DNA of 40,524 nucleotides, from positions 1-40,524 of IMG/VR virus record IMGVR_UViG_2627853794_000002, one strand, 5' to 3'. The first letter of the stretch is position 1. Each line of letters opens with the position of its first letter. Positions 754-2,398 of the stretch are shown in pieces. Origin of the DNA: a virus. Its lineage: Duplodnaviria; Heunggongvirae; Uroviricota; Caudoviricetes. The notes below the pieces were generated by a model, which saw only the letters and a program-made list of their open reading frames with translations, was not told where the DNA came from and ran no database searches. The position numbers and the translations under genes are program-made.

Positions 754-1326
754 CCAATTTAACTGAAACCAGGATGAAGTATATGTATATAAAGTTCACT
801 TTGCCAAACTTCAGTATAAAAAACCACTAAAAATAGGGTGTGATAAAAAATACCGTAACAATAAAGCAAAGGATTATAAATTCCGTTACAGTTACAAATG
901 ATACTCAAGAAACAATTCCTTAGGAAAAACTTATTTACAGCCAATAAGTAAGACACTTATATGATATCAAGTTTTCATAAAACATAACTAGGCTAAATAG
1001 CTGCGCCTAATACCGCTACACTTTTGCCAGCCCATGTTTGCCTCCGGGTATTGACCCCTTCTCTACGCAACTTCAGTTCCCACCACCAACTTTGCGGCAG
1101 CTTTGTAGGATCAATGTCTAAAAGAATAATGGTGACCGATAAGAAAACGACTGAATAACTGCAGATTTTCGCTCAAAACCTTCCTGTCAGATCCATAGCG
1201 AATCAAGTGCTGAATGTCACAGTATCGAACAGAAAACAGTGACGATCTAACCCTTCAAGAATATTCTACGATTGTTCTGTTTAGGAAAAGCAAGGCGGGA
1301 AGTCGGGAGATAAGTCATTGATAAAG

Positions 1327-1388
1327 TGGCGGAGAGAGGGGGATTTGAACCCCCGGTAGAGTTGCCCCTACTCCGGTTTTCGAGACCG
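1327..1388 (-). pseudogene. Truncated tRNA-Ser(CGA)-like gene, 3' ~62 nt only (acceptor 3' strand, T-arm, variable arm, part of anticodon arm)
   Basis: Minus strand reads ...GGTCTCGAAAACCGGAGTAGGGGCAACTCTACCGGGGGTTCAAATCCCCCTCTCTCCGCCA; matches 3' part of E. coli serU as recalled; no D-arm or 5' acceptor strand upstream. Confidence 0.6.
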
Positions 1389-1567
1389 ACCCGATCATCA
1401 AACGAAACATAAAATTAGCTCACATTATGAGGAAAGGTATCTTTTTGCGCTATGTAAATTCAAAGGGTTAGCCTCATTTTCCCGATGGCTTTCTCAACAC
1501 TACTAGTTGTGAGCCCTTGCAATGTTCATTAATATACGTCTCACAAATAATTCACAGATATTGCAAA

Positions 1568-2341
1568 ATGGATATTACTGAGTTTCCTTCTGGAGTAATT
1601 GAACACCTTGGCTGGTATGTATACCGATTGATTGATCCTAGGGACGGAAGCACCTTCTATGTAGGGAAAGGCAAAGGTAACCGCGTATTTGCCCATATGC
1701 GCGGTGAAGTGGCAGCGACTGATGATGACGAGTTACTGAGCAACAAGCTAAAGCAAATCAGAGAAATAAGGTTAGCAGGACTTGAAGTTATCCATGTCAT
1801 CCATCGACACGGAATGACTGATGAAAAGACGGCGTACGAAGTTGAAGCTGCACTTATTGATGCCTACCCTGGGTTAACGAATATCATGAATGGTGCTGGC
1901 AGCAATGAATTCGGCGCCGCGCATGTCAAAGAGTTGATAGCAACATATCAACCCGAAACCATAACATTTCATCATAAAGCATTAATGATTTCCGTTAACA
2001 GAAGTGCAAAGGATTCAGAGCTTTATGATGCGGTTCGATTTAGCTGGCGCATTAATGTCTCTCGCGCCAGCCAAGCAGAAGTCATTCTTGCTACTGTAAG
2101 GGGAATCGTTCGAGGGGTTTTCATTGCTGATAAATGGCTCAAATCAACACGTGAAAATTTCCCTACGATGAAATACTGGGACGAGGATCCTGACTTTGAG
2201 GCAACACAAAGTTCTCGCTATGGTTTTGAAGGCCGAGAAGCCCCACCTGAAATAGCAAATCTTTATCTTGGAAAAAAAATACCAGATGAATTAAGAAAAA
2301 AAGGAGCTATGTCCCCGGTCCGTTACTCACCTAATTTTTGA
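1568..2341 (+). CDS. GIY-YIG nuclease-domain protein with uncharacterised C-terminal domain
   Basis: N-terminal motif YVYRL...[10 protein letters not shown] followed by conserved E (YEVEAAL) and N (NIMNG); ATG at 1568 preferred over TTG at 1517 of the ORF track; convergent with pin. Confidence 0.6.
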
Positions 2342-2361
2342 GTCTTTAAGTGATAAGCATA

Positions 2362-2398
2362 AACCGCAGCACGATCTTGCATACGACGTGCTACGGTT
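2362..2398. terminator. Hairpin between convergent GIY-YIG gene and pin (candidate bidirectional terminator)
   Basis: Inverted repeat aaccgcagcacg / cgtgctacggtt with ~13-nt loop, directly after both stop codons. Confidence 0.4.

Follow-up and report, generated by a model that had tools for sequence, protein, structure and literature searches.

A thrW prophage of the SfI/SfII group whose far att site very probably lies just beyond an AraC-family cargo gene

The window analysed here, that is, the whole stretch of 40,524 nucleotides, very probably contains an apparently complete lambdoid myovirus prophage of the SfI/SfII group, integrated in thrW, with its far end about 0.5-0.8 kb left of position 1. 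The window opens at the stop codon of a gene for an AraC-family regulator (Table 1) and extends to proA (39271-40524). Its prophage genes comprise int, xis, exo, bet, cI, cII, O, P, Q and a four-tRNA cluster, together with the terminase, capsid, sheath, baseplate, tail fibre and pin genes. The missing second att site is an ordinary consequence of where the window was cut, and its att system is a textbook case of the SfII/P22 type, already known. Judged by its matches, the region at 957-2398 is an internal cargo zone of the prophage, and the cargo in it is also already known.

The morphogenesis module combines an HK97-like head with a Mu-like contractile tail, and the sheath, capsid and terminase families were matched. 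The structural genes, both the head and the Mu-like tail genes, are 97-98% identical to those of SfI, SfII and SfV over about 15 kb (97.6-97.8% for SfI and SfII). The window differs from these phages beside attP, where gtrABC/oac were not found and where it carries pin, PD-T4-3/CMoRE, a fragment of serU and the AraC-family gene; SfII has gtrA-gtrB-gtrII where the window has the 957-2398 cargo. The prophage is a relative of the SfI/SfII/SfV group and not a serotype converter.

Several further features of the window were noted. Five 23-nt iterons (TTTACCTGATTCGGGTAA...) lie at 30308-30429, inside an O-like replication gene (29846-30865), as in origins of the lambda type. Two pairs of 19-nt repeats (ACCAATAGCAATAAGTATT-like) at 31690-31733 and 34057-34100, one pair being immediately upstream of cI (31734-32462), look like operator sites. 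Four phage tRNA genes (Gly-TCC, Thr-TGT, Lys-TTT and Met-CAT) are located on the minus strand at 24168-24477; SfI reportedly has two.

In integration of the lambda and P22 type, Int recombines the attP core with an identical 3' part of a tRNA gene in the host, and excision requires Int, Xis and both cores. The int side of the window shows this organization. The end of int is separated from the 3' end of an intact tRNA-Thr(CGT) gene by 14 nt, and this gene was both called by ARAGORN and found identical to K-12 thrW throughout its length (Table 1). The sequence-only reading, which had placed the integrase directly against an intact thrW, is borne out in this respect. The integrase shares 100% amino-acid identity with SfII Int and 89.9% with P22 Int, and xis overlaps the start of int, a layout also seen in the SfII annotation. 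The same reading had supposed that the att core might be short. This was mistaken, since Int is that of SfII and its core is a 46-mer, ATTCGTAATGCGAAGGTCGTAGGTTCGACTCCTATTATCGGCACCA, published for SfI, SfII, SfV, SfX and P22 (PMC3636060). These phages share with the window their integration in thrW via the 46-bp core, an int gene that reads toward the core, and xis beside int.

The reverse complement of the published core corresponds to window 39081-39126, which is also identical to the core of free SfII (6179-6224 of L016). Free SfII has the int-side arm on one side of the core and, on the other, the P' arm, TATAAGAATCCGCTT.... The 40 nt to the left of the core in the window (39041-39080) are identical to the SfII int-side arm, and the int-proximal junction consists of the int-side arm of free SfII attP plus the core. 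The int-proximal 46-bp core of the lysogen is the phage-supplied part of thrW. The SfII P' arm has no occurrence anywhere in the window, as is expected if the distal junction is outside it.

Alignment of the thrW 3' end, a check that the sequence-only reading had proposed, found no second copy in the window. When thrW with 20 nt on either side was compared with the whole window by k-mers, no word of at least 11 nt recurred in direct orientation. K-mers, local alignment and repeat finding returned, as thrW-derived repeats, only the phage tRNA-Thr and chance-level matches. The sole extended similarity to thrW in the window is the phage's own tRNA-Thr(TGT) at 24246-24321. The earlier observation that the stretch between pin and the AraC-family gene has no copy of the thrW 3' end is thus confirmed, and it holds for the entire window.

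For comparison, we fetched 11 E. coli loci that share the homologous GIY-YIG/pin prophage end at thrW, including ETEC H10407 (L001), O157:H7 TR01 (L003), L008-L010, L012, L013, L018 and L020. The 46-mer is present in all 11, with an exact match in 10 and one mismatch in H10407. In all of these loci, among them L001, L003, L008, L009, L010, L012, L013, L018 and L020, it is directly followed by at least 125 bp of SfII-type P' arm. The stop codon of the AraC-family gene is position 1 of the window, and in eight of the eight relatives that carry this gene the core lies 490 or 755-758 bp beyond it, the two spacings being due to the differing length of an IS3-family scrap. In the relatives, the 0.5-0.8 kb that the window leaves unseen is made up of this scrap and the P' arm. 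These results support the earlier suggestion that the distal att site lies outside the window. The closest relatives found, L018 and L020, are 98.8% identical over window 1-9913. Among complete E. coli genomes, the best matches stop at 97.6% over window 1-3000, owing to a divergent 5' half of pin.

The left neighbour of the distal core is yagP/paoD in some relatives and, in O157:H7 and H10407, the integrase of a tandem P4-like satellite. In Shigella, the host flank at thrW is yaiC (PMC3636060), whereas in E. coli it is yagP. The arrangement is widespread: the core, P' arm, IS3 scrap and AraC-family gene occur in one place, at a coverage of at least 80%, in at least 319 complete E. coli genomes, and 379 complete E. 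coli genomes carry most of window 1-3000. We also compared the empty thrW locus, as the sequence-only reading had suggested, using a synthetic query composed of the yagP flank, the core, the rest of thrW and proA. This reconstructed site (yagP, 126 bp, thrW, proA) is contiguous in 948 complete E. coli genomes, with identities of up to 99.8%, and the relatives place the core beyond the AraC-family gene. A minority of genomes (e.g. H172) have the AraC module without an adjoining thrW core; these are probably ev099-like prophages at another site.

Table 1. Features of the thrW prophage and its boundaries (window coordinates; distances for the relatives)
Feature	Position	Strand	Basis or remark
AraC-family regulator, prophage cargo and not host flank	1-744	-	Pfam HTH_AraC/HTH_18
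IS630-family scrap, 55 nt, left edge of the captured serU spacer	994-1048		92.9% to an annotated IS630-family transposase region
Copy of the yodB-serU spacer, 278 bp (DNA downstream of serU)	1049-1326	-	96.6-97.7%, no gaps
Putative fossil serU att core, tRNA-Ser 3' 62 nt (CCA end to anticodon loop)	1327-1388	-	Identical to native serU
Putative phage-side arm of the fossil serU junction, with the upstream region of the GIY-YIG gene	1389-1567		Diverges from native serU and ev099 right after 1388
PD-T4-3/CMoRE, single-gene type IV restriction endonuclease, N-terminal GIY-YIG domain	1568-2341	+	PADLOC PD-T4-3
Pin-type DNA invertase beside the tail-fibre genes	2399-2989	-	Pfam Resolvase + HTH_7; pinE annotated in relatives
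Excisionase	37646-38026	+	phrog_2907 excisionase, E 7e-52
Tyrosine integrase, SfII/P22 type, thrW-specific	37903-39066	+	Pfam Phage_integrase, E 5e-48
Int-proximal att core, 46 bp	39081-39126	-	thrW 3' part, anticodon loop to CCA
Intact thrW, tRNA-Thr(CGT)	39081-39156	-	ARAGORN call; 76/76 nt identical to K-12 thrW
Distal core in L003, L009, L018, L020	755-758 bp beyond AraC stop
Distal core in L001, L010	490 bp beyond AraC stop

We propose that Int would have joined the 46-bp attP core to the identical 3' part of thrW. Integration would thereby have rebuilt an intact thrW beside int, with its 5' part from the host and its core (39081-39126) from the phage, and the displaced 46-bp host copy would have ended up at the far end of the prophage. 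Leftward from the tail fibres, the order is pin, PD-T4-3/CMoRE, the fossil serU junction, the IS630 scrap, the AraC-family gene and the window edge. Beyond the edge we would expect the IS3-family scrap, the SfII-type P' arm, the 46-bp core, and either host yagP or a tandem P4-like satellite. On the plus strand, the 46-mer would read TGGTGCCGATAATAGGAGTCGAACCTACGACCTTCGCATTACGAAT to the left of position 1, followed on its right by TATAAGAATCCGCTTCTAATTCAAAG....

From the collinear relatives, we infer that the source genome shares their left end. If its left end is indeed as in the relatives, the core-to-core element would measure about 39.6-39.9 kb, an estimate spanned by the lengths of the SfV, SfI and SfII records (37.1-41.5 kb). 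Judging by its size, the whole core-to-core unit would be packaged. The phage collection that we searched held no isolated SfV-like phage with the PD-T4-3 and AraC cargo.

It is also conceivable, if unlikely, that this genome has lost its distal att site through deletion or disruption, so that the prophage is locked in and no thrW repeat lies nearby. The IS scraps in the zone (the IS630 piece at 994-1048 and the IS3-family fragment in the relatives) show past rearrangement, and the spacings of 490 and 755 bp show indel variation beyond the AraC-family gene. However, the core is kept in every fetched thrW relative, even in the heavily decayed O157:H7 prophage with its frameshifted int. The left end of the window is collinear with the thrW relatives up to its edge, and the prophage looks complete. 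A boundary that lies intact just outside the window remains our preferred reading.

An implicit assumption of the sequence-only reading was that the far end of the prophage falls between pin and the AraC-family gene. This assumption is wrong, as the AraC-family gene is packaged in the free lambdoid phages ev099, mEp332 and PhiR70_1. Window 1-1389 is 99.1-99.4% identical to these three phages, in which the module sits between the tail-fibre genes and int, and the DNA from 1371 onward is common to all the GIY-YIG-bearing relatives. The thrW core was not found in ev099, whose int also differs, showing that the AraC module is not tied to one att specificity. The stretch from pin to the AraC-family gene is fully assigned, with 1-1389 collinear (99%) with the free phages and 1371-3000 with the GIY-YIG/pin end of the relatives. 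This leaves no room for a degenerate thrW relic between the two genes.

The left part of this region contains a copy of the yodB-serU spacer, for which 5422 of the 5426 complete E. coli genomes have a match, joined to the 3' part of serU. The 5' part of the tRNA is missing, and a complete cloverleaf (about 90 nt) is not present. ARAGORN made no tRNA call on the serU fragment at 1327-1388, and an Rfam scan of 900-1600 gave only sub-threshold partial tRNA-like matches, caused by the fragment. The break at 1388/1389 falls at the same point in an O111:H8 lambdoid prophage located at serU (L015) and in free ev099. In one relative located at ssrA, all that remains of serU at the left edge of the GIY-YIG/pin module is its anticodon stem-loop, GGTTTTCGAGACCGGTCC. 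An exact 24-mer scan found the spacer only in E. coli and Shigella and in one other Escherichia sp., where it extends over only 160 bp at 94%. Our reading of its origin leans toward ancestral host DNA taken up by a phage, as opposed to a phage relic in the host.

The 340 bp at 1049-1388 are built like the hybrid att junction of a phage that integrates in serU, with host flank, core and phage arm in succession, and this junction was probably captured by aberrant excision. A phage would once have excised aberrantly from serU and taken the junction with it, and the retained core would then have joined modules. Aberrant excision is also the event that formed the specialised transducing phages lambda gal and lambda bio. 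Like these, 1049-1388 has host flank, core and phage arm inside phage genomes, as a displaced excision would capture them. It differs in that only 278 bp of host spacer are present, ending at an IS630 scrap, that its carriers now use other int/att modules, and that the capture itself is deduced after the fact. We put forward only tentatively the fuller reading, in which 1049-1388 is a fossil of aberrant serU excision that breaks exactly at the anticodon-loop crossover and is carried in at least two unrelated morphotypes, namely lambda-tailed phages (ev099, mEp332 and PhiR70_1) and SfV-like thrW myoviruses.

The serU junction could also be taken as the true end of the SfV-like phage. In that case, an older ev099-like prophage would have left the AraC-family gene, the IS scraps, the P' arm and the thrW core as its remnant, and the element would be a recombinant or tandem composite. 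Such a history would fit the 99% identity of window 1-1389 to lambdoid phages with lambda-type tails, the fact that the module from 1371 on is that of SfV-like prophages at ssrA and thrW, and the overlap of the two modules solely in the serU anticodon region. Yet it would alter the history of the element and not its boundary, as the only att partner of the SfII-type Int is the 46-mer beyond the AraC-family gene, beside an SfII-type P' arm. In addition, ev099 lacks the thrW core and has a different int, which argues that the thrW core and P' arm did not come from an ev099-type phage, and the AraC/PD-T4-3 composite occurs in hundreds of genomes, suggesting that it spreads as a unit. We consider an end at 1388/1389 very improbable.

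The spacer copy also contains the near-match to thrW, AATGGTGaCCGATAA at about 1127-1142, that the sequence-only reading had described as short and imperfect. That description stands. The near-match agrees with AATGGTGCCGATAA at the tRNA 3' end in 14/15 positions with a one-base insertion, and similarity to thrW stops after these 15 nt. It is the top local alignment within 1-3000 but does not rise above chance, its score of 23 being equalled or beaten in 21% of 300 shuffles of 1-3000 and also reached by a separate 3-kb block of the window. The copy of the yodB-serU spacer around it has no gaps relative to the native E. coli chromosome, which reads AATGGTGgCCGATAAG at this place, and the near-match is therefore not a thrW relic. 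We give virtually no credence to the idea that it is a decayed thrW att core marking the boundary, as it is refuted by the shuffles, by the copies of the motif in free ev099 and mEp332 (both without a thrW core), and by the native serU spacer, in which the orthologous sequence is AATGGTGGCCGATAAG.

The GIY-YIG gene of the cargo zone encodes PD-T4-3/CMoRE. Its protein matches the PADLOC model PDLC04031 (PD-T4-3) with an E value of 2.4e-140 over residues 1-256 of 256, and 253 of 257 residues (98%) are identical to those of the crystallised E. coli O157:H7 CMoRE (PDB 9U75). CMoRE, as PD-T4-3 has been renamed, degrades DNA containing 5hmC or glucosyl-5hmC (PMC12923530). By analogy with such near-identical proteins, the gene in the window is predicted to confer 5hmC/5ghmC cleavage and protection against T-even phages (PMC12923530). 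About 20,000 blocks of an assembly collection list this exact protein.

In pin, the start annotated in relatives corresponds to position 2953. The 5' half of the gene (2601-3000) is about 15% diverged from all relatives, while the sequence on either side stays 98-99% identical. Neither the 184- nor the 196-aa form of the Pin protein has an exact match on record, and an exact 42-mer from the divergent half had no match in representative genomes. The gene thus has the appearance of a recombinant invertase allele.

In relatives, varied cargo fills the slot that runs from the pin/GIY-YIG end to the att site, both at ssrA (L006, L007, L011, L017 and L019) and in L008, L012, L013 and L022. It includes an EcoRII restriction-modification system, GmrSD, Bro-N/HTH/M78 genes, a lipase, and CorA with IS1. 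This difference in contents identifies the slot as a cargo hot spot, often holding defence genes. The same phage end is found at ssrA instead of thrW in L006, L007, L011, L017 and L019. The sequence-only reading had named, as one of three alternatives, a remodelling of the distal end by the GIY-YIG and tRNA-Ser-fragment region. This is correct only in a loose sense: the region is a mosaic cargo zone, but the zone lies inside the prophage, and it has not replaced the att site.

Among known prophages, those of O157:H7 and H10407 at thrW have the same end, with pin, the GIY-YIG gene, the serU fossil, the AraC-family gene, the IS3 scrap and the 46-bp core. Over window 754-1520, the identity to O157:H7 is 99.9%. 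In contrast to the apparently complete prophage of the window, the O157:H7 prophage is a remnant, with a frameshifted int, an inserted IS and loss of the morphogenesis genes, and a P4-like satellite follows its distal core. This satellite (integrase, psu, ogr/delta and primase-helicase) was observed directly beyond the distal core at 7198-18490 of L003 (TR01) and at 1-5511 of L001 (H10407). As the satellite adjoins the distal core, the thrW locus is a tandem array in TR01 and H10407. At the score threshold applied, L003 yielded no third copy of the core. We take the O157:H7/H10407 prophage and satellite to correspond to Sakai Sp1 and Sp2.

A further parallel is e14, the cryptic prophage of E. 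coli K-12, which integrates in icd and has a pin-mcrA end encoding the HNH enzyme McrA. Both e14 and the window prophage have SfV-like tail fibres and pin followed by a modification-dependent nuclease, which in e14 is the last gene before the att site. They differ in the integration site (icd in e14, thrW in the window) and in the nuclease, an HNH enzyme in e14 and the GIY-YIG protein PD-T4-3 in the window.

These findings bear on how such prophages are delimited. A boundary called at the last recognisable phage gene, here pin or the tail fibres, would lose about 3 kb of real cargo, including the anti-phage gene PD-T4-3/CMoRE and the AraC-family regulator. The internal tRNA-Ser fragment could also be mistaken for an att site by prophage callers or readers. 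Even with the second core off the window, the ends can be defined by comparing the int-proximal arm with free-phage attP and by comparison with the empty site. The fossil serU junction documents, on a small scale but clearly, how host DNA enters the cargo regions of phages. If the tentative reading of 1049-1388 is true, a retained hybrid att core can be a hot spot for the exchange of end modules, through site-specific or short-homology recombination.
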